Source of the DNA: Salinivirgaceae bacterium
GTDB lineage: Bacteria > Bacteroidota > Bacteroidia > Bacteroidales > SZUA-534
Direction of reading: 5' to 3'
Assembly: GCA_041664345.1 (NCBI GenBank)
Contig: JBAYKX010000001.1
Span: 138,628 to 202,627 of the forward strand
DNA length: 64,000 nt
Positions 6,269-58,409 of this stretch are shown piece by piece. The notes under the pieces are model-generated. The model ran no database searches and had not been told where the DNA came from. It saw only the letters and a program-made list of their open reading frames with translations. The stretch's first letter is position 1. The number at the start of each line of letters is the position of its first letter. The translations under genes and the position numbers were made by a program.

Positions 6269-6434
6269 TCAAAATAATTTTGGCTAAAAATAGTAATTTA
6301 TATGCACTTCTAACCTAACGATACCTTTAATTATTGCGGAATGTCTTTAAGCATCTTGAATGCTTTAAATGCAAGTTTTTAATTAATGTCGGCTCGTTGA
6401 ATGTAACTTAGCTGGCAATGAAATTTTCACCATT

Positions 6435-6611
6435 GGGAAGATGGGGAAATAGAAAGATGGAAAACTGGAAAGATGAGAAAATGGGAAGGTGGAAAGAAGG
6501 AACTTGCAGCGCCCGCTGCGAGATTTTAAAAGATAGAAAAATAGAAGAGTAGAATGGTCCAAAACTGGGAAGATGGAAAATGGGAAGATGGGAAGGTCAG
6601 GAAATGGGAAT
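6435..6611. repeat. Purine-rich degenerate ~7-bp tandem array split by a GC palindrome
   Basis: Runs such as gggaaga/tggggaa/atagaaa/gatggaa lie on both sides of acttgcagcgcccgctgcgag (6502-6522). Confidence 0.7.
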
Positions 6612-7889: not shown

Positions 7890-8672
7890 ATGAAATGGAT
7901 TATTGGTTTATTGAGCAGGTATATACCCCGCCATATACAACAAGTTATTGCTCACCGCTTGCTTATCATTCTGTCGGTTTTCTATCGGGGCAATCGCTAT
8001 CAGGATCCCATCGACGGTAAAACCTACCGGAAACTGTTGCCTTATGGTCAGGTGAACAAACGCGAAAATGCGTTAGCCCCGCTGAGTATGTCGTTGGAGC
8101 GGCACCGTTTGATTTGGTTGTATTTGAAAGAAAAAACCGATTTTTTCAGTGCTCCGCAAAGATTTTTACATGTGGCTCCCGAATATTGTTTTTTAAGGAA
8201 ATTCAAGAAGCAAAAAAACCTGACTTACATTACCGGAGACTTGATTTCGCCTTGGGCCGATGTTAAAATGGATGTACGCAACATTCCTTTTCCGGATAAT
8301 GAATTCGATGTGGCTATGTGTAACCACGTTTTTGAACATGTGGTGGAAGACCGTCAGGCCATGAGCGAATTTTACCGGGTGCTGAAACCCGGAGGATGGG
8401 CCATTTTTCAAGTGCCATTAGATACCACCCGCGAAACCACTTTTGAAGATGCGAGCATTACCAGCCCACAGGATAGGGAAAAGCATTTCTGGCAGCACGA
8501 CCACGTAAGGCTTTACGGGCGCGACTATGGCAAACGACTGTCTCAAGCCGGTTTTACAGTTACCGAAAATGACTTTATCAAAGAAGTAGGCCTGGAGCTT
8601 TCCAAACGATATGCATTACCGCTGGGCGAGATACTTTATATTTGCCGGAAAAAACTGGAAATTAGAAATTAG
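7890..8672 (+). CDS. Class I SAM-dependent methyltransferase
   Basis: Methyltransf_11-like core: FPDNEFDVAMCNHVFEHVVEDRQAMSEFYRVLKPGGWAIFQVP. The last codons and the stop lie inside the following heptamer array. Confidence 0.75.
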   Translation: MKWIIGLLSRYIPRHIQQVIAHRLLIILSVFYRGNRYQDPIDGKTYRKLLPYGQVNKRENALAPLSMSLERHRLIWLYLKEKTDFFSAPQRFLHVAPEYCFLRKFKKQKNLTYITGDLISPWADVKMDVRNIPFPDNEFDVAMCNHVFEHVVEDRQAMSEFYRVLKPGGWAIFQVPLDTTRETTFEDASITSPQDREKHFWQHDHVRLYGRDYGKRLSQAGFTVTENDFIKEVGLELSKRYALPLGEILYICRKKLEIRN

Positions 8673-8718
8673 AGTATAGAAGTTAGAAGACCGAAGATTG
8701 AAGTCAGAAGTTGGAATT
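8657..8718. repeat. Degenerate heptamer array (NNNGAAG)n
   Basis: Reads ttagaaa/ttagagt/atagaag/ttagaag/accgaag/attgaag/tcagaag/ttggaat with a period of 7. It abuts the left end of the IS. Confidence 0.75.
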
Positions 8719-8779
8719 TGTCCTCACATGAAATAGGTTGACAAAAAGTTTGGTTAATAACTTTTAAATTTGACCAATT

Positions 8780-9139
8780 ATGACAACAACAGAAAAAATG
8801 AGAAGACAATTTACGGAAGCATTCAAAAAAGAAAAAGTTTCCCAATTAGACGAACGGAAAATTACCGTTTTGCAATTATCAAGGATATATGAAGTATCTG
8901 AAACCGCCATCTATAAATGGGTAAGAAAGTATTCAAAATTTGCAGGCAAACATGAAAGGATTGTGGTTGAAAAAGAATCTGAAGGCCAGAAGAACATAGA
9001 ACTGTTGAAAAAGTTGGCTGAAACGGAAAGGCTCCTTGGCCGAAAAGAAATAGAGTTGGAGTACCTTAAAAAAGTGATAGAATTTGGTTCAGAATATGCC
9101 GGGGCTGATATCAAAAAAAAGTACGAATCCCAGTCCTGA
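8780..9139 (+). CDS. IS3-family transposase OrfA (HTH)
   Basis: 119 aa with FTEAFKKEKVSQL and an HTH (LSRIYEVSETAIYKWVRKY), followed by a leucine-zipper-like coiled coil. Confidence 0.9.
   Translation: MTTTEKMRRQFTEAFKKEKVSQLDERKITVLQLSRIYEVSETAIYKWVRKYSKFAGKHERIVVEKESEGQKNIELLKKLAETERLLGRKEIELEYLKKVIEFGSEYAGADIKKKYESQS
9113..9121 (+). promoter_or_regulatory. Candidate programmed -1 frameshift site (A8G) joining orfA to orfB
   Basis: The orfA frame reads GAT ATC AAA AAA AAG TAC. The -1 frame is open from here (..KKVRIPVLNWFSIHHKEFGYSMESVYEISGVSRQGYF) into orfB. A-rich heptamers are the usual IS3 slippery motif. Confidence 0.7.
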
Positions 9140-9177
9140 ATTGGTTTAGCATCCATCATAAAGAATTTGGGTATAGT

Positions 9178-10035
9178 ATGGAATCAGTATATGAAATATC
9201 AGGTGTAAGCAGACAAGGCTATTTTCAGGAAAAAAAGCGGGGCATGCAAAAAGAATCCATTCTGGAACGGACACAAGAAATGGTTCTACAAGTGCGGGCA
9301 GATCACCCCAAAATAGCGGCCAGGCCAATGCACTATATGCTTAATATTGATATGATGGGGATTAATAAGTTTGAGGAGTTAATCTCAAGTTTAGGCCTGG
9401 GGATAAAACGCAAAAAGCTATGGATAAAAACGACAAACAGCAACCACAATTACCGTACCTATGGCAACCTGGTAAATGGGATAGTGTTGGACGGAATAAA
9501 CCAATTATGGGTGAGCGATATAACATACCTCATAATGCAAGAAAAGGTATACTACATCATTTTCATCCAGGATGTATACAGCAGGGCAATTTTGGGATAT
9601 TCGGCAAGTGATAATATGTACACAATCAACAATATATGGACATTGAAGATGGCATTAAAAAGCAGGGGTACAAAGGCTATACCGGGGTTAATCCACCATT
9701 CGGATAAAGGCAGTCAATATTGTTCCAATGAGTACATAAAATTGATGAAAAGTTCGGGCATGAACATAAGTATGGCATCCAATAGTCTCGAAAACCCTTA
9801 TGCAGAAAGGCTAAATGGGACAGTAAAAAACGACTATCTTTTGGCATATGATAACAGTACTTTGAGCAAATTAAAAAAGTCATTGGATAGGGTGGTTTGG
9901 CTATACAATAACGAAAGGCCACATTCAGAACTTGGCTACTTATCGCCAGCCAAATATGAAGGCAAAATTGCAAATATGGCAATAGGGCAAAGGTATAAAA
10001 TGGAATTATATGATTTTAGGAAGGATTTGAAATAA
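9178..10035 (+). CDS. IS3-family transposase OrfB (DDE / rve integrase core)
   Basis: Shows WVSDITY, HHSDKGSQY and NPYAERLNGTVK, the DDE spacing typical of the rve fold. It is probably expressed as an OrfAB fusion. Confidence 0.9.
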   Translation: MESVYEISGVSRQGYFQEKKRGMQKESILERTQEMVLQVRADHPKIAARPMHYMLNIDMMGINKFEELISSLGLGIKRKKLWIKTTNSNHNYRTYGNLVNGIVLDGINQLWVSDITYLIMQEKVYYIIFIQDVYSRAILGYSASDNMYTINNIWTLKMALKSRGTKAIPGLIHHSDKGSQYCSNEYIKLMKSSGMNISMASNSLENPYAERLNGTVKNDYLLAYDNSTLSKLKKSLDRVVWLYNNERPHSELGYLSPAKYEGKIANMAIGQRYKMELYDFRKDLK

Positions 10036-10092
10036 GCCTTTCCTACGCTGGGTTTTGAAAGGCATGCCCCCATAAGAATAATAGAAAAAAGG

Positions 10093-10359
10093 ATGAGATA
10101 TAAAAATAAATTTGGAAATATGAAATATTATGATTATAGTTTGCATTTTGTTGTTGAACCTCATAAAGAAAGTTTAGTACACCAAACTTATTTTAAAATC
10201 AATAAAAAAACCGCAGCTTGTTTTGAAAAAGCTACGGTCTATCATTCTCATGGATCAGGCTATTCCTTGAAAAGTTGCTCCCCAGCAGAGCTTTTCTCCG
10301 CTTTGCCTGATAACTCAAAATTACAATTTTCTAATAAAACTTTTTATGATAATTATTAA
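10093..10359 (+). CDS. Possible passenger ORF inside the IS, between orfB and the right inverted repeat
   Basis: 88-aa ORF with no recognisable motif. It is supported only by being the single long ORF in the ~375 bp of otherwise unexplained IS-internal DNA. Confidence 0.25.
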   Translation: MRYKNKFGNMKYYDYSLHFVVEPHKESLVHQTYFKINKKTAACFEKATVYHSHGSGYSLKSCSPAELFSALPDNSKLQFSNKTFYDNY

Positions 10360-10415
10360 CAACCAAACTTAAAGTTTAGTAAAATCTGTCAACCTTATTT
10401 ATGAAAGGACAATTT

Positions 10416-10484
10416 AGTAACCAGCGACCAGTAACCAACAACCAGTAACCAGTAACAACGACTAGTAACCAGTAACCAGCAATC
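10416..10484. repeat. Degenerate heptamer array (AGTAACC)n
   Basis: Reads agtaacc/agcgacc/agtaacc/aacaacc/agtaacc/agtaaca/acgacta/gtaacca.. and runs up to the LolE-like start codon. Confidence 0.8.
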
Positions 10485-20147: not shown

Positions 20148-20237
20148 AGCCTAAATTTTAAGATTTTTCGATGGGAGAAAATTACCATTCCTTTTTGTTT
20201 TTAGCAACTTTTAAAAATAACTTATGTAGCATATTCA

Positions 20238-20311
20238 AGTTAGAAGTCAGAAGAAGGAAGTCGGAAGTCAGGAGTGGGAAGACAGAAGTTAGAGATTAGA
20301 AAATAGAAAAA
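20238..20311. repeat. Degenerate heptamer array (GNNNGAA)n
   Basis: Reads gttagaa/gtcagaa/gaaggaa/gtcggaa/gtcagga/gtgggaa/gacagaa/gttagag/attagaa/aatagaa. Confidence 0.8.
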
Positions 20312-36273: not shown

Positions 36274-36681
36274 TCAATGGTTTTAACGTAAATACTAAGT
36301 ATTATCCCATTCAAAAATTTTAACTGTCAGATTGATTGTGGGTTAATACAATTCAGGGCGCAAAAGTACAAATAGTTTACCAAAAGCATAATAAAACATG
36401 TTTTGTCGTAAACGTTGTTTTTAACAATTTGTAAAAACCTTTAGTAATTGCTGTTTGATTTTTATTTCCGAAAAATGTTTACATCCACGATATAACTGGA
36501 AGTAGAGAGAAGTAAAACAGTATAAATAAGTGTGTTAATAACTTATGCAAAGGATTGCCTTGTTTTAGTATTTTTTTTTTGAGTGAAAGTGAAATTGCCG
36601 AAATGGCAGGGATTTACTACTATCCTTAACGACCGTTCGATGGATGCAAAGATGCAATAATGGTTTAATATTTTAATGAAA

Positions 36682-36798
36682 AGGTGCAAGGTTGCAGGGT
36701 AACAAGGTAGCAGGGTAGCAAGGTGGGAAAGGTAGCAAGGTAACAGGGTAACAAGGTGAAAAAATGAGAAGATTGGAAGGGTGGGAAAATGGGAAAGA
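36682..36798. repeat. Degenerate ~8-bp tandem array (RCARGGTA)n merging into GGAAR repeats
   Basis: Reads gcaaggtt/gcagggta/acaaggta/gcagggta/gcaaggtg/..gcaaggta/acagggta/acaaggtg, then gagaagattggaagggtgggaaaatgggaaag. It ends at the PEGA gene stop. Confidence 0.8.
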
Positions 36799-52784: not shown

Positions 52785-52802
52785 GCCACAGATTCACTGA
52801 TT
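52785..52802. repeat. Left arm of an 18-bp inverted repeat bracketing the GxxExxY gene
   Basis: gccacagattcactgatt. The reverse complement of 53203-53220 is gccacagattcacagatt, matching at 17 of 18 positions. Confidence 0.85.
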
Positions 52803-52870: not shown

Positions 52871-53194
52871 ATGGAGGTTCATCGGATTTTGGGAAAAGGC
52901 TTATTGGAAATAGTTTATAAAGATGCGATAGAATATGAATTTAAAAAGAGAGAAATACCTTATCACCGGGAAAAGAAATATGAAGTAAAATACAAAGACA
53001 TAATTCTACCTCATTATTTTTTTGCTGATTTTGTGGTTTATGATAAAATTATCCTCGAAATAAAGGCACAAAGTGGAATTGTGGATGAGCAAATTAGTTG
53101 GGTAATTAATTACTTAGCTATATCAAAATGTCCACTGGGATTAATAATCAACTTTGGAGAATCATCATTAGTTACAAGACTTCTTATTTTATAA
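52871..53194 (+). CDS. GxxExxY-family protein (PD-(D/E)XK-like); the N-terminal 21 codons are cut off by an in-frame TAA
   Basis: EVHRILGKGLLEIVYKDAIEYEFKKREIPYHRE..ADFVVYDKIILEIKA. The in-frame upstream reading from ATG 52808 gives MKYPEDEYPLQK*SYQVIGICM.., with the TAA at 52844-52846. Confidence 0.8.
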   Translation: MEVHRILGKGLLEIVYKDAIEYEFKKREIPYHREKKYEVKYKDIILPHYFFADFVVYDKIILEIKAQSGIVDEQISWVINYLAISKCPLGLIINFGESSLVTRLLIL

Positions 53195-53202
53195 TCTGTG
53201 AA

Positions 53203-53220
53203 TCTGTGGCCATTTTTTAG
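53203..53220. repeat. Right arm of the inverted repeat bracketing the GxxExxY gene
   Basis: aatctgtgaatctgtggc, beginning 9 nt after the stop codon. Confidence 0.85.
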
Positions 53221-54423: not shown

Positions 54424-54463
54424 AAAAAAAGCCCGTTTAAATGGTTTTAAACGGGCTTTTTTC
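54424..54463. terminator. Bidirectional rho-independent terminator shared by tdh (+) and sdhB (-)
   Basis: aaaaaaa-agcccgtttaaa-tggt-tttaaacgggct-tttttt: a perfect 12-bp stem flanked by an A-run and a T-run. Confidence 0.85.
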
Positions 54464-54481
54464 TATATTAATACAATTCTC

Positions 54482-55243
54482 TTATTCCACCACTTTAGCC
54501 ATTAAATATTCCCTGTTAAGGGTAGCAATGTTGGCAATGGAAATTCCTTTTGGGCATTCCACTTCGCAAGCCCCGGTATTGGAGCAGTTGCCAAAACCCA
54601 GTTCGTCCATTTTCGATACCATGGCACGAGCCCTACGGGCAGCTTCCACTTTACCTTGCGGCAAGCGGGCCAGATGCGAAACCTTGGCCGATACAAAAAG
54701 CATGGCCGATGAATTTTTACAGGTTGCCACACAAGCACCACATCCAATGCATGAGGCTGCGTCCATAGCCGCTTCAGCATCGTCGTAACCAATAGGAATG
54801 GCATTACCATCAGGCACTCCACCAGTATTTACTGAAACAAACCCTCCGGCATGCAATATTTTCTCAAATGCCGACCGATCTACCATTAAATCCTTAACCA
54901 CCGGAAAGGTACCGGCACGGAATGGTTCCACCACAATGGTTTCGCCGTCTTTAAACTTCCGCATGTGCAACTGACAGGTTGTAATAGCATCATCGGGGCC
55001 ATGGGCACGGCCGTTTATAAACAAACTGCACGTACCACAAATACCTTCGCGGCAGTCGTGATCAAAAACAATTGGTTCTTTTCCGCTTTCAATCAGTTGG
55101 AAATTTAAAATATCCATCATTTCCAAAAAAGAGGTGTCGGTAGATATATTGGTAACAGGATAGGTTTCAAACTGACCCTTGGAGGTGCTGTTTTTTTGCC
55201 TCCATACCTTAACTTTTATTTCTTTTAGAATTTTTTCAGACAT
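54482..55243 (-). CDS. sdhB: Succinate dehydrogenase / fumarate reductase iron-sulfur subunit
   Basis: 253 aa with [15 protein letters not shown] (2Fe-2S), [13 protein letters not shown] and [15 protein letters not shown] (4Fe-4S/3Fe-4S). Confidence 0.92.
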
Positions 55244-55261: not shown

Positions 55262-55294
55262 TTTTAAGTATCAAGTATAGAGTATCAAGTATTA
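55262..55294. repeat. Heptamer array (TATNNAG/AAGTATN)n downstream of the four-helix-bundle gene
   Basis: Reads aagtatc/aagtata/gagtatc/aagtatt/aag. The stop codon of the gene lies inside it. Confidence 0.75.
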
Positions 55295-55645
55295 AGATTG
55301 TTTTGAACTGCGGAAACTAAAAAGCATTTTCTGTATCTCTTTCACTCTTTCTTCATACAGAGTTAATTCAATTTCAGTAATTAAATCCACATCAAAGGAG
55401 AGTATAAGCTGAGTCTCTAATTCAAACGCACTTCCATTTGCCATATCCAGAAACCGGCACAGATCTTTATCCGAATTGCGGCCACAGCCTTCTGCAATAT
55501 TCGAAGGTATTGATTGGGAGCTTCTCCTTAGCTGGGAGGTTAAACCAAATAATTCTTCCTTTGGAAATCTCCTGGTTAAGTTATAAATATCTTTATGAAG
55601 GCTTCTGGCTTTTTGCCAAACTATCAATTCTCTAAAATTATGCAT
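55292..55645 (-). CDS. Four-helix-bundle protein (family formerly called 23S rRNA intervening-sequence protein)
   Basis: FRELIVWQKARSLHKDIYNLTRRFPKEELFGLTSQLRRSSQSIPSNIAEGCGR..FLDMANGSAFELETQL. Confidence 0.88.
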   Translation of the reverse strand: MHNFRELIVWQKARSLHKDIYNLTRRFPKEELFGLTSQLRRSSQSIPSNIAEGCGRNSDKDLCRFLDMANGSAFELETQLILSFDVDLITEIELTLYEERVKEIQKMLFSFRSSKQS

Positions 55646-55660
55646 CTTACTTTCTATAAT

Positions 55661-55712
55661 CTGATTCTTGCTACTTGTATCTTGCGTCTTGATTCTTGTG
55701 TCTTGTGTCTCA
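55661..55712. repeat. Heptamer array (NNTCTTG)n upstream of the four-helix-bundle gene
   Basis: Reads gattcttg/ctacttg/tatcttg/cgtcttg/attcttg/tgtcttg/tgtctca. Its reverse complement, (NNNCAAG)n, mirrors the array at 55262-55294. Confidence 0.75.
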
Positions 55713-55719
55713 ATCCTCT

Positions 55720-57660
55720 CTATTTATAACTCCGCTGGGCCAACTCAATCGCCTCAAATTTAAGATCCTCTTTATGCATCACTGGTTCTTGGTTTTCTCC
55801 TTTATATTCCCAAGCAGAAACATAAGCCCCAATTTCATCATTCCGTTTGGCTTCGCCATCCTCAGTAACACTTTCCTCACGGAAGTGCCCACCACACGAT
55901 TCGTTTCGAGCCAAGGCATCGCGGGCCATTAAATCGGCCAGTTCAATAAAATCGGCAACCCGTCCGGCTTTCTCCAATTCTTGGTTTACCTCACCTTGAA
56001 CTCCGGGAACCCTTACATCTTTCCAGAATTCAGCTTTTATTTCAGCAATTTCCTGAATGGCTTGTTTCAATCCGGCTTCATTGCGGCTCATCCCAACCTT
56101 ATCCCACATCACTTTTCCCAATTTTTTATGGAAATAGTCAACAGGTTTGGTTCCTTTAACCGCCATCAAGCGGTCCAACCGTGCCTGAACTTCTTTTAAT
56201 GTTTGTTCAAATTCGGGTGCGTTGGTATTAATTTTTGGAACCTGAATTTCGTTGGCCAGATAATCGCCAATGGTATAAGGCAACACAAAATATCCGTCGG
56301 CCAATCCCTGCATCAATGCCGAAGCTCCTAAACGGTTAGCCCCGTGATCGCTGAAGTTGGCTTCACCAATGGCATACAATCCGGGAACGGAAGTCATCAG
56401 GTTGTAATCAACCCAGGTTCCGCCCATGGTATAGTGGATGGCGGGATAAATCTGCATGGGTTCTTTATAGGGATCTGTATCGGTAATTTTTTCATACATC
56501 TGAAACAAATTCCCATAACGGGCTTCAATAACAGGTCGTCCTAATCTGGCTATTGAATATTTAAAATCGAGATAAACAGCCAACCCTGTATTGTTAACCC
56601 CAAACCCGGCATCGCATCGCTCCTTACCCGCTCTTGAAGCCACATCACGTGGAACAAGGTTTCCATAAGCCGGATACCGGCGCTCCAAGTAAAAGTCACG
56701 ATCCTCTTCGGCAATATCATTGGGCCCAATCAATCCTTTTTGCAATTTTTCCGCATCTTCTTTCTTTTTGGGAACCCAAATCCTACCGTCGTTGCGCAAC
56801 GATTCCGACATTAACGTCAGTTTCGATTGTTGATCGCCATGAACCGGGATACAGGTAGGGTGAATTTGCACAAAACAAGGATTACTCATGTAAGCACCGC
56901 GTTTGTAAGCTTGCCACGATGCACCGCCATTACATCCCATGGCATTGGTGGATAGGAAAAATACGTTTCCGTATCCGCCACTGGCAATAACAACAGCATG
57001 GGCACCAAATTTTTTAATTTCGCCCGAAACCATGTCGCGGGCAATAATTCCACGGGCTTTACCATCAATTTTAACAATATCCAACATTTCGTGGCGAGGA
57101 AACATTTTAACAGTTCCTGCTCCAATTTGACGGTTCAAGGCACTGTATGCGCCTATCAACAGCTGCTGTCCGGTTTGTCCGCGGGCATAAAACGTACGTG
57201 AAACCAACACACCACCAAATGAACGGTTCGATAATAGGCCTCCATATTCGCGTCCAAAAGGTACTCCTTGTGCCACACACTGATCAATGATGCTTCCCGA
57301 AACTTCAGAGAGTCGGTGAACATTCGCTTCACGTGAGCGGTAGTCGCCCCCTTTAATGGTATCGTAAAACAAGCGGTAAACACTGTCGTTATCGTTCTGA
57401 TAATTTTTTGCTGCATTTATTCCACCTTGCGCAGCAATGGAGTGGGCTCGGCGTGGACTATCCTGATAACAGAATGCTTGCACATTATAGCCCAGTTCGG
57501 CCAAACTGGCAGCCGCTGAGGCTCCTGCTAATCCGGTACCAATAACAATAACATCCAATTTCATTTTATTGGCCGGACTTACCACTTTAATTTTAGCCTT
57601 ATGTTTCGACCATTTTTCAGCCAATGGTCCTTCGGGTATTTTTGAGTTTAATAGTGTCAT
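55720..57660 (-). CDS. sdhA: Succinate dehydrogenase / fumarate reductase flavoprotein subunit
   Basis: 646 aa with [12 protein letters not shown] (FAD), [23 protein letters not shown] and [10 protein letters not shown]. Confidence 0.93.
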
Positions 57661-57728: not shown

Positions 57729-58409
57729 TTAAAACCTAATAATAAAGTACAATGGGATGATAGAAAAACCTACGGCAATTAGTACAGCAAATATTTTTCC
57801 AACCAGTTCAATCCGCTTACGCCAGATATTTCCGCTCCATCCCATAGTCTGAAAAGCACTCCAAAAACCATGTGTTAAATGAATGCCTAAAAAAACAGCT
57901 CCCGCAATATATACCAAGTTATAAAACAAACTATTCTTAAACAAACCACCAACCAAACTATACGTATCTTCCATCTCAATGCCGCCAATTAAAACAGCAG
58001 GATGTGGATTTTCGGTCACCTTGAGCTTCCAATAGAAATTCATGATGTGCAGAACCAAGAAAATGGTAATTAAGGTTCCCAACACAAACATATTCCTTGA
58101 TGGCCATGTGCTGGCTTCACTTTGATCCACTTTATTGTAACCTACCGGACGGGCTTTCTGGTTCATGAGGGTAAGGTAACCCGCATAAATCATGTGCATT
58201 AGGAAACCAATTGCCAAAAGAGGCTCCACTATCTTAATAATGGGATTGGTAGCCATAAAATGAGCCCCTTGATTAAACAATACGCCGGTATCATCAAATA
58301 TAAGCAGTAAGTTTACTGTTAAGTGTACCGATAAAAACATCATCAGAAAAAATCCTGTTATACTCATAAAGAATTTTTTTCCGATGGAAGAACTAACAAA
58401 ATTGCTCAT
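57729..58409 (-). CDS. sdhC: Succinate dehydrogenase / fumarate reductase cytochrome b subunit (b558-type, single membrane subunit)
   Basis: 226 aa, five TM helices with conserved His, first gene of the sdhCAB order typical of Bacteroidota. Confidence 0.85.
   Translation of the reverse strand: MSNFVSSSIGKKFFMSITGFFLMMFLSVHLTVNLLLIFDDTGVLFNQGAHFMATNPIIKIVEPLLAIGFLMHMIYAGYLTLMNQKARPVGYNKVDQSEASTWPSRNMFVLGTLITIFLVLHIMNFYWKLKVTENPHPAVLIGGIEMEDTYSLVGGLFKNSLFYNLVYIAGAVFLGIHLTHGFWSAFQTMGWSGNIWRKRIELVGKIFAVLIAVGFSIIPLYFIIRF

Follow-up and report, generated by a model that had tools for sequence, protein, structure and literature searches.

A four-helix-bundle gene between mirrored heptamer arrays at the sdhA-sdhB junction of a Salinivirgaceae bacterium is probably an inserted cassette of the intervening-sequence type

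In a Salinivirgaceae genome, sdhA and sdhB are separated by a small gene for a four-helix-bundle (4HB) protein, and this locus raises the question of whether the gene is an ordinary member of the operon or an insert with an architecture of its own. A first-pass annotation of the 64-kb window (the whole stretch of DNA that was analyzed) had favored an insert, describing a 117-aa 4HB gene that splits the sdhC-sdhA-sdhB operon on the same strand and is bracketed by degenerate heptamer arrays. ORF calls and profile scores confirmed the split operon, with sdhC, sdhA, the 4HB gene and sdhB all co-directional on the minus strand (Table 1). The genome of this window, designated G000, is a 5.57-Mb draft with 37% G+C in 127 contigs, and its sdhA is 78-82% identical to that of Prolixibacteraceae MAGs. 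A single terminator-like hairpin was found on the operon strand, after sdhB, and none within the cassette or the sdhA-sdhB interval. A scan for sigma-70-type promoters gave counts at chance level and was uninformative, as was a search for the Bacteroidetes-type TAnnTTTG box, which had one match (55762, inside sdhA) against ~0.5 expected. An Rfam scan of the window gave zero matches.

Table 1. Features of the sdh operon around the 4HB gene (window coordinates)
Feature	Coordinates	Strand	Evidence
sdhC, cytochrome b558-type membrane subunit, first gene of the operon	57729..58409	-	TIGR02046 171.9 bits, cut-off 96
sdhA, flavoprotein subunit; stop codon 7 nt ahead of the upstream arm	55720..57660	-	PF00890, PF02910; NF005749 1158.6 bits, also TIGR01811
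Upstream (5') arm, ~7 degenerate heptamers, (NNNCAAG)n in gene sense	55661..55712	-	Tandem Repeats Finder and sequence
4HB gene, 117 aa (23S rRNA IVS protein / S23p family)	55292..55645	-	PF05635 E 2.3e-40; TIGR02436 E 1.8e-37
Downstream (3') arm, ~4.4 heptamers, (CTTGATA)n in gene sense	55262..55296	-	Tandem Repeats Finder and sequence
sdhB, iron-sulfur subunit, final gene of the operon	54482..55243	-	PF13085; NF005746 411 bits
Terminator-like hairpin 3' of sdhB	54424..54463	-	18-pair stem, then T run

The gene had been placed in a family first seen in 23S rRNA intervening sequences (IVS), and both family profiles bore this out with scores far above their cut-offs: 137.6 bits against 33.8 for PF05635, with residues 5-109 on profile positions 1-105, and 127.9 bits against 24 for TIGR02436. 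The hallmark of this family is a four-helix-bundle fold assembled into a pentameric ring. Residues 6-83 were similar to the solved structure of Xanthomonas XCC0516 (PDB 2gsc; E 2e-18). Among orthologues the dN/dS ratio was 0.12-0.17 where dS was measurable. Judged from these ratios the 4HB protein is maintained by purifying selection and hence has some function. We also considered the gene as Avd, the accessory protein of diversity-generating retroelements (DGR), and rejected this since the Avd model NF033474 gave 24.6 bits (E 2.4e-5) against a cut-off of 80. The two share a distantly related four-helix-bundle fold family, as a match to the Avd-related profile PF22296 (E 9e-4) also indicated, but the 4HB protein scores far under the Avd family cut-offs, and no reverse transcriptase, template repeat or variable repeat adjoins the sdh 4HB gene. 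The two RVT_1 genes of G000 (C2:143781 and C7:86623) both lie far from any 4HB gene.

Degenerate heptamer arrays were detected on both sides of the 4HB gene, at the positions previously described, by Tandem Repeats Finder at period 7. The array at 55266-55296 had 4.4 copies with 79% matches, and the array at 55674-55710 had 5.3 copies with 80% matches and reached 55666 at period 14/21. On the gene strand the upstream spacer reads GAGACAC AAGACAC AAGAATC AAGACGC AAGATAC AAGTAGC AAGAATC, and the downstream spacer, from the stop codon on, reads CTTAATA CTTGATA CTCTATA CTTGATA CTTAAAA. The upstream arm begins a few bases past the sdhA stop and finishes 16 nt ahead of the 4HB ATG; the downstream arm overlaps the 4HB stop codon and finishes ~20 nt ahead of the sdhB ATG.

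The two arrays had been described as mutually reverse-complementary, with the gene between imperfect inverted repeats, and this held in part. In the G000 copy the arms mirror each other in the CAAG/CTTG core only; when one arm was simply aligned with the reverse-complemented other arm, the match was no better than chance. Plain reverse-complement alignment, run over 352 arrays, was too insensitive for degenerate units and was replaced by RNA duplex energies with shuffled or mismatched controls. The best arm-arm duplex of the G000 copy had an energy of -13.5 kcal/mol; dinucleotide shuffles gave -9.2 +/- 2.4 (z -1.8), and 23 of 500 were as good. The mirrored 7-nt arrays are genuine, while the stem predicted for this copy is weak and its pairing marginal. 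When the same upstream arm was paired with the downstream arms of G002 and G009, the energies were -38.8 and -38.7 kcal/mol, respectively.

Arrays of this kind are frequent in G000. A census of arrays with a period of 7 or 8 and no fewer than 3.5 copies found the 352 arrays mentioned above, nearly all intergenic, many of them adjoining ordinary genes and 26 inside long ORFs. Within operons, neighboring junctions often share one array unit, for instance CAATTNN at four junctions (C41:15530-18008) and GGTNNCAAG-type octamers (C2:55000-75000). The window itself has further arrays at 6434-6595, 8658-8716, 10416-10479, 20237-20293 and 36681-36757. Heptamer arrays exist independently of 4HB genes, and their presence per se is not cassette-specific. 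G000 also carries a conserved non-coding element of ~125 nt in ~45 copies, located between CTGGTTN-type and ACTTCNN-type arrays (examples L091-L098: C2:26450-26950, C55:19850-20300 and C65:23430-23880). The GC hairpin of this element scored 41.3 and 39.2 bits for Rfam Acido-Lenti-1 (RF01687; gathering score 37), and five more copies were just under.

Flanking by an array on both sides is rare for ordinary genes. Among 3,824 control genes of G000, 5.3% had an array within 160 nt upstream, 6.9% downstream and 0.7% on both sides. On the other hand, all five 4HB ORFs of G000 were flanked by short-period arrays. Four of these ORFs, including the sdh copy, are intact and one is disrupted; each lies between two same-strand genes, the other four in a hut-like operon, two ABC-transporter operons and a peptide-exporter operon. 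Thus the three intact copies and the disrupted one elsewhere in the genome all have the flanking arrays first noted at sdh. Each copy has its own unit; the five differ in their arms and their proteins are divergent, and no identical second copy of the sdh cassette was found in G000. Folding of the C48 and C2 copies indicated that the outer arrays pair over ~100 nt around the ORF. The disrupted fifth gene (C34:27130-27800) is split by a GC-rich insert of ~130-250 bp (CCCTCCGCCCTTCGGGCACCTCCC...), and its flanking arrays persist.

The association extended to other genomes. Of 67 4HB genes from 40 relatives, upstream arrays were present at 36, downstream arrays at 44 and both at 26. The corresponding numbers for the closest 80 homologues in named genomes (mostly Bacteroidota, with some Acidobacteriota, Planctomycetota, Myxococcota and Ignavibacteriota) were 50, 45 and 36, and the period was 7 in 84 of the 95 arrays of this set. 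Arrays on both sides were therefore present at 39-45% of these 147 4HB genes, against 0.7% of the G000 control genes. At 23/67 and 24/80 loci the pairing of the two flanks was beyond the 5th percentile set by mismatched pairs, where ~5% was expected. The 4HB genes were co-oriented with both neighbors in 52/60 and 58/72 cases (81-87%), as compared to 59% of control genes. The TATCAAG/CTTGATA unit occurred in the sdh clade and again in a second 4HB clade, whose Mucilaginibacter members lie at metH|metF and whose Spirosoma and Algoriphagus members precede a thiolase gene; this hints that gene and arms travel together. The individual same-unit cassettes (AGTATCAAG / CTTGATACT) are L129, L130 and L174 in Mucilaginibacter (between a methionine-synthase-like gene and metF), L168 in Spirosoma and L177 in Algoriphagus (both before the thiolase gene). 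The general claim of a separate heptamer for each protein subfamily was dropped after arm 6-mer content had been compared with protein identity in a Mantel-type test, which found no relation below 60% identity (145 loci; Spearman -0.01, with 184 of 300 permutations as high).

We located SdhB in 36 of 41 related genomes and could read the sdhA-sdhB junction in 30. A 4HB gene with mirrored arrays occupied the junction in G000, in G002 of the same genus, and in G009, G011 and G014. G003 (same genus) and G007 kept the arrays with a 4HB gene cut to its first 20-40 codons, and G018 had arrays alone. The junction was empty, with a 63-84 bp spacer and no arrays, in the congeners G001, G004 and G005 and in the family members G012 and G016. 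Five junctions read in same-order genomes (7-265 bp) had no arrays, and a scan for the gene itself gave no 4HB match at sdhA|sdhB in the remaining same-order genomes. Hence the comparison of occupied and empty sites that the first-pass annotation had called for showed arrays accompanying the gene or its remnant and absent from the five empty junctions; in no genome compared did the 4HB gene occur here without arrays. Comparison of filled with empty junctions revealed no target-site duplication and no shared end motif. Contigs encoding an identical SdhB came from two other assemblies of the same strain; the cassette was identical in both, and no strain-level polymorphism was seen among these assemblies. 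A scan of named genomes added an sdhA|sdhB 4HB gene in four Prolixibacteraceae MAGs (Mariniphaga, Draconibacterium and two unnamed) and in one Blastocatellia MAG. The latter (L145, DASRDU010000088.1, Acidobacteriota) has a 4HB gene that is 53% identical, with well-mirrored AGCNNTC / GANNGCT arms at -58.4 kcal/mol; a separate insertion, a preference for this site or movement of the whole operon may account for it.

At the filled sdhA|sdhB sites the arms were mirrored in 10 of 10 cases, with units of the CAAG, GAGA, TAATGAGA, AGTAGTG and AGCNNTC types, and the unit changed in concert on both sides among these ten cassettes. The first arm unit often overlapped the sdhA stop codon. Cognate arms of the ten cassettes had a duplex energy of -27.2 kcal/mol against -19.4 kcal/mol for non-cognate arms (permutation p 0.01). 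In the orthologues the arm-arm duplex z was -6.2 (G002) and -4.8 (G009), and minimum free energy folds paired arm with arm around the ORF at five of five occupied junctions.

The 4HB proteins of the sdh junction formed one clade with 99/96 support (97/87 when the Prolixibacteraceae ones were added), so the insertion is likely to be old and mostly vertically inherited. This fits one old insertion in a Prolixibacteraceae-like family followed by mostly vertical descent, in which the empty and remnant sites would be losses. The phylogeny points to a single insertion with later losses and one swap, not to repeated insertion. The swap was seen between G000 and G002. Their sdhA and sdhB flanks are ~92% identical at the nucleotide level (pS 0.30-0.33, pN ~0.01), whereas the cassettes are ~62% identical, with a pS of 0.85, a pN of 0.22 and 66% amino-acid identity for the 4HB gene. 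The island of divergence has its edges at the sdhA stop and at 'CATAAAAAC' ~20 nt ahead of the sdhB ATG, and divergence in the adjoining 60-nt windows was not raised. As a calibration, orthologous 4HB genes at two other sites had a pN of just 0.12-0.20 even against the more distant congener G003, and congeners in another genus had nearly identical 4HB genes (branch lengths 0-0.04); therefore, general fast evolution does not explain the island. Most likely the cassette was replaced as a unit by a diverged allele, a reading taken from one 4-kb contig of G002, which is a fragmented MAG. The remnant in G003 has arms and an N-terminus of the G002 type, which supports the swap. At other junctions, too, the sister species do not have the same set of filled sites. 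Three G002 contigs (C371, C273 and C415; L099-L101) start 28-81 nt before a 4HB gene, inside an arm, and arrays appear to break short-read assemblies. The orthologous G000 sites lack a 4HB gene: one is an 8-nt junction (C79) and another holds arrays and the 125-nt element (C65).

Taken together, we consider it reasonably probable that an inserted, IVS-type cassette, selfish or at most loosely domesticated, makes up the ~450-bp unit between a point just past the sdhA stop and one ~20 nt short of the sdhB start. The filled, decayed, swapped and empty states among relatives support the earlier proposal of a small selfish or domesticated cassette as opposed to an ordinary gene; on this comparative evidence the 4HB insert appears to behave as a long-lived selfish insert and not as a respiratory gene. 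Since it contains no terminator and lies co-directionally in an operon junction, the cassette is most likely part of the sdhCAB transcript, as the same-strand bias of 4HB genes also suggests. In the transcript the two arms could form a long, imperfectly paired stem that places the ORF in its loop, as the folds predict, if weakly for the G000 copy. By analogy with the Coxiella IVS, RNase III, which is encoded in G000 (C7:101812-102195), would cut this stem and separate sdhCA, 4HB and sdhB RNAs. After the old insertion the site would have undergone clean loss, decay to arm-bearing remnants and at least one precise replacement of the unit between sister species. A classical transposable element or MITE is not supported, as there is no target duplication, no shared terminal repeats, no enzyme gene in the unit and no identical second copy. 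A bolder extension is that the 4HB pentamer binds its own heptamer-repeat stem, as RNA or DNA, and thereby drives copying and exchange of the cassette between operon junctions and rRNA genes, perhaps with an RNA intermediate given the kinship with Avd. We regard this as a long shot; if it were true, rRNA intervening sequences would be one branch of a widespread and undescribed class of transposase-less mobile elements, each a self-recognizing gene with its arms.

A role of the arms at the level of DNA could account just as well for the precise edges of the swap and for the clean losses. The mirrored arrays would then be recombination or hairpin substrates for exchange, capture and deletion of cassettes, similar to integron attC sites or to REP hairpins with a nuclease acting in trans, and the RNA stem would be a by-product. 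The edges of the G000/G002 island coincide exactly with the cassette ends without raised divergence beside them, some congeners lost the cassette cleanly together with its arrays, sister species differ in filled junctions, the ~45-copy hairpin element also lies between arrays, and in many cassettes the arms begin at the stop codon of the upstream gene. However, the cassettes have no linked recombinase or nuclease, neither a target duplication nor a conserved end motif was found, and the units vary among the cassettes of a genome, a variation that would be hard to reconcile with one site-specific enzyme. In addition, the same-strand bias of 81-87% is predicted by transcription dependence and not required by a DNA mechanism. 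We therefore judge DNA-acting arms to be unlikely, though with a real chance of being right. A domesticated regulator, in which the pentamer binds its own heptamers in mRNA or DNA and sets either the output of SdhA versus SdhB or its own synthesis, is improbable in our view. It would account for purifying selection on the protein over a family-wide time span, for retention of the cassette at sdhA|sdhB in at least nine genomes, and for the recurrence of the TATCAAG unit with two 4HB clades at three junctions (sdhA|sdhB, metH|metF and before the thiolase gene), but most relatives have an intact sdh operon in which the cassette is missing or decayed, and in the Mantel-type test arm k-mer content did not track protein relatedness below 60% identity.

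Two further readings dispense with an inserted or exchanged unit. In one, the arrays are ordinary simple repeats born by slippage in many spacers, and the 4HB gene merely sits in one of them. The census of mostly intergenic arrays beside ordinary genes, with units shared by neighboring junctions, is what this predicts, and intergenic heptamer arrays are known from Bacteroidetes, cyanobacteria, Beggiatoaceae and Xanthomonas (PMC4679880, PMC4692102). Yet both-side arrays accompany so few control genes and so many 4HB genes, in G000 and elsewhere, the five junctions free of gene and remnant have no arrays, and the two arms change their unit together, that coincidence is very unlikely. In the other, the cassette was never replaced and diverges fast in place, through hairpin-induced or retroelement-linked mutagenesis. 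The excess divergence of the cassette over its flanks between G000 and G002 would follow, and the family is related to the Avd of DGR (NF033474, E 2.4e-5). This local hypermutation is scarcely credible when set against the nearly identical 4HB genes of congeners in another genus, the persistently low dN/dS, the large distance of both G000 reverse transcriptases from any 4HB gene and the low score of the Avd model relative to its cut-off.

With the inserted IVS-type cassette as the favored reading, its closest known system is the ORF-bearing 23S rRNA IVS of Coxiella, Leptospira, Brucella and the Xanthomonas-type S23p (PMC4990558). In Coxiella burnetii an ORF of the same family lies inside a 28-bp stem, with tandem GACAGAT heptamers upstream of the ORF, and RNase III removes the IVS from the transcript (Warrier et al. 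2016, PMC4990558). The two systems share the PF05635/S23p family and tandem heptamers adjoining the ORF, which in the sdh cassette have period 7 on both sides; the sdh 4HB ORF likewise lies between arms that may form a stem, with marginal predicted pairing in the G000 copy. They also share a decay-prone ORF, a variable heptamer copy number and passive carriage in a host transcript, the last being probable for the sdh cassette. On the other hand, the rRNA IVS sits in helix 25 or 45 of 23S rRNA and the sdh cassette at an mRNA-operon junction of protein-coding genes; the arms are one near-perfect 28-bp repeat in Coxiella and degenerate heptamer arrays here; and the Coxiella ORF is regarded as an untranslated frame in decay, whereas the sdh 4HB ORF is under purifying selection. 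RNase III excision is described for Coxiella and proposed by analogy for the sdh cassette. The G000 assembly, searched for a 23S rRNA gene that might carry an IVS, contained none. A full-text search of a limited literature collection found no paper that places PF05635 genes at operon junctions with mirrored heptamer arrays around them.

Intergenic heptanucleotide tandem arrays are also known as STRR in cyanobacteria. MacGregor (2015, PMC4679880) describes TAACTGA repeats, and Rehm et al. (2015, PMC4692102) describe GGGAATC heptamer repeats in Xanthomonas, convergent (inverted) pairs included. The STRR, TAACTGA and GGGAATC arrays resemble those at sdh in being non-coding 7-nt arrays between co-directional genes, each with its own consensus and abundant in some Bacteroidota. 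They differ in that the accessible text of the two papers links no enclosed gene to them, whereas here paired mirrored arrays come and go with a 4HB gene. REP/REPIN elements with RAYT and the repeat-framed small nuclease genes GxxExxY and Ssn likewise place a small gene or a gene-less hairpin in an inverted-repeat frame and are scattered in spacers, but the 4HB protein is a 117-aa helical bundle without a recognizable nuclease or transposase motif, and its arms vary among the copies of one genome.

How bacterial rRNA intervening sequences arose and spread, and what the S23p/PF05635 proteins do, are questions that date from the early 1990s. At the sdh locus the design of a gene in a repeat stem is found in an mRNA operon of central metabolism, and the filled, decayed, swapped and empty states of this single site within one family offer a natural series for the study of RNase III sites, arm recognition and exchange. 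On the practical side, 4HB cassettes split operons in annotation and their arrays may interrupt short-read assemblies.

The window contains two further small loci framed by repeats. One is a gene of the GxxExxY family (PD-(D/E)XK; PF13366 / TIGR04256) at 52871-53194 on the plus strand, between kbl and tdh, which is framed by inverted repeats that match perfectly over 13 bp (GCCACAGATTCAC, 52785-52797; GTGAATCTGTGGC, 53198-53210). Its ORF lacks the first positions of the profile, beginning at 11-12, and a short frame upstream of it ends in a stop, so the gene may be damaged. The other is a candidate IS3-type OrfA/OrfB pair, formed by the ORFs at 8780-9139 (119 aa) and 9178-10035 (285 aa), which lies exactly between (GAAGTTA)n and (AGTAACC)n arrays in the region 8658-10479.
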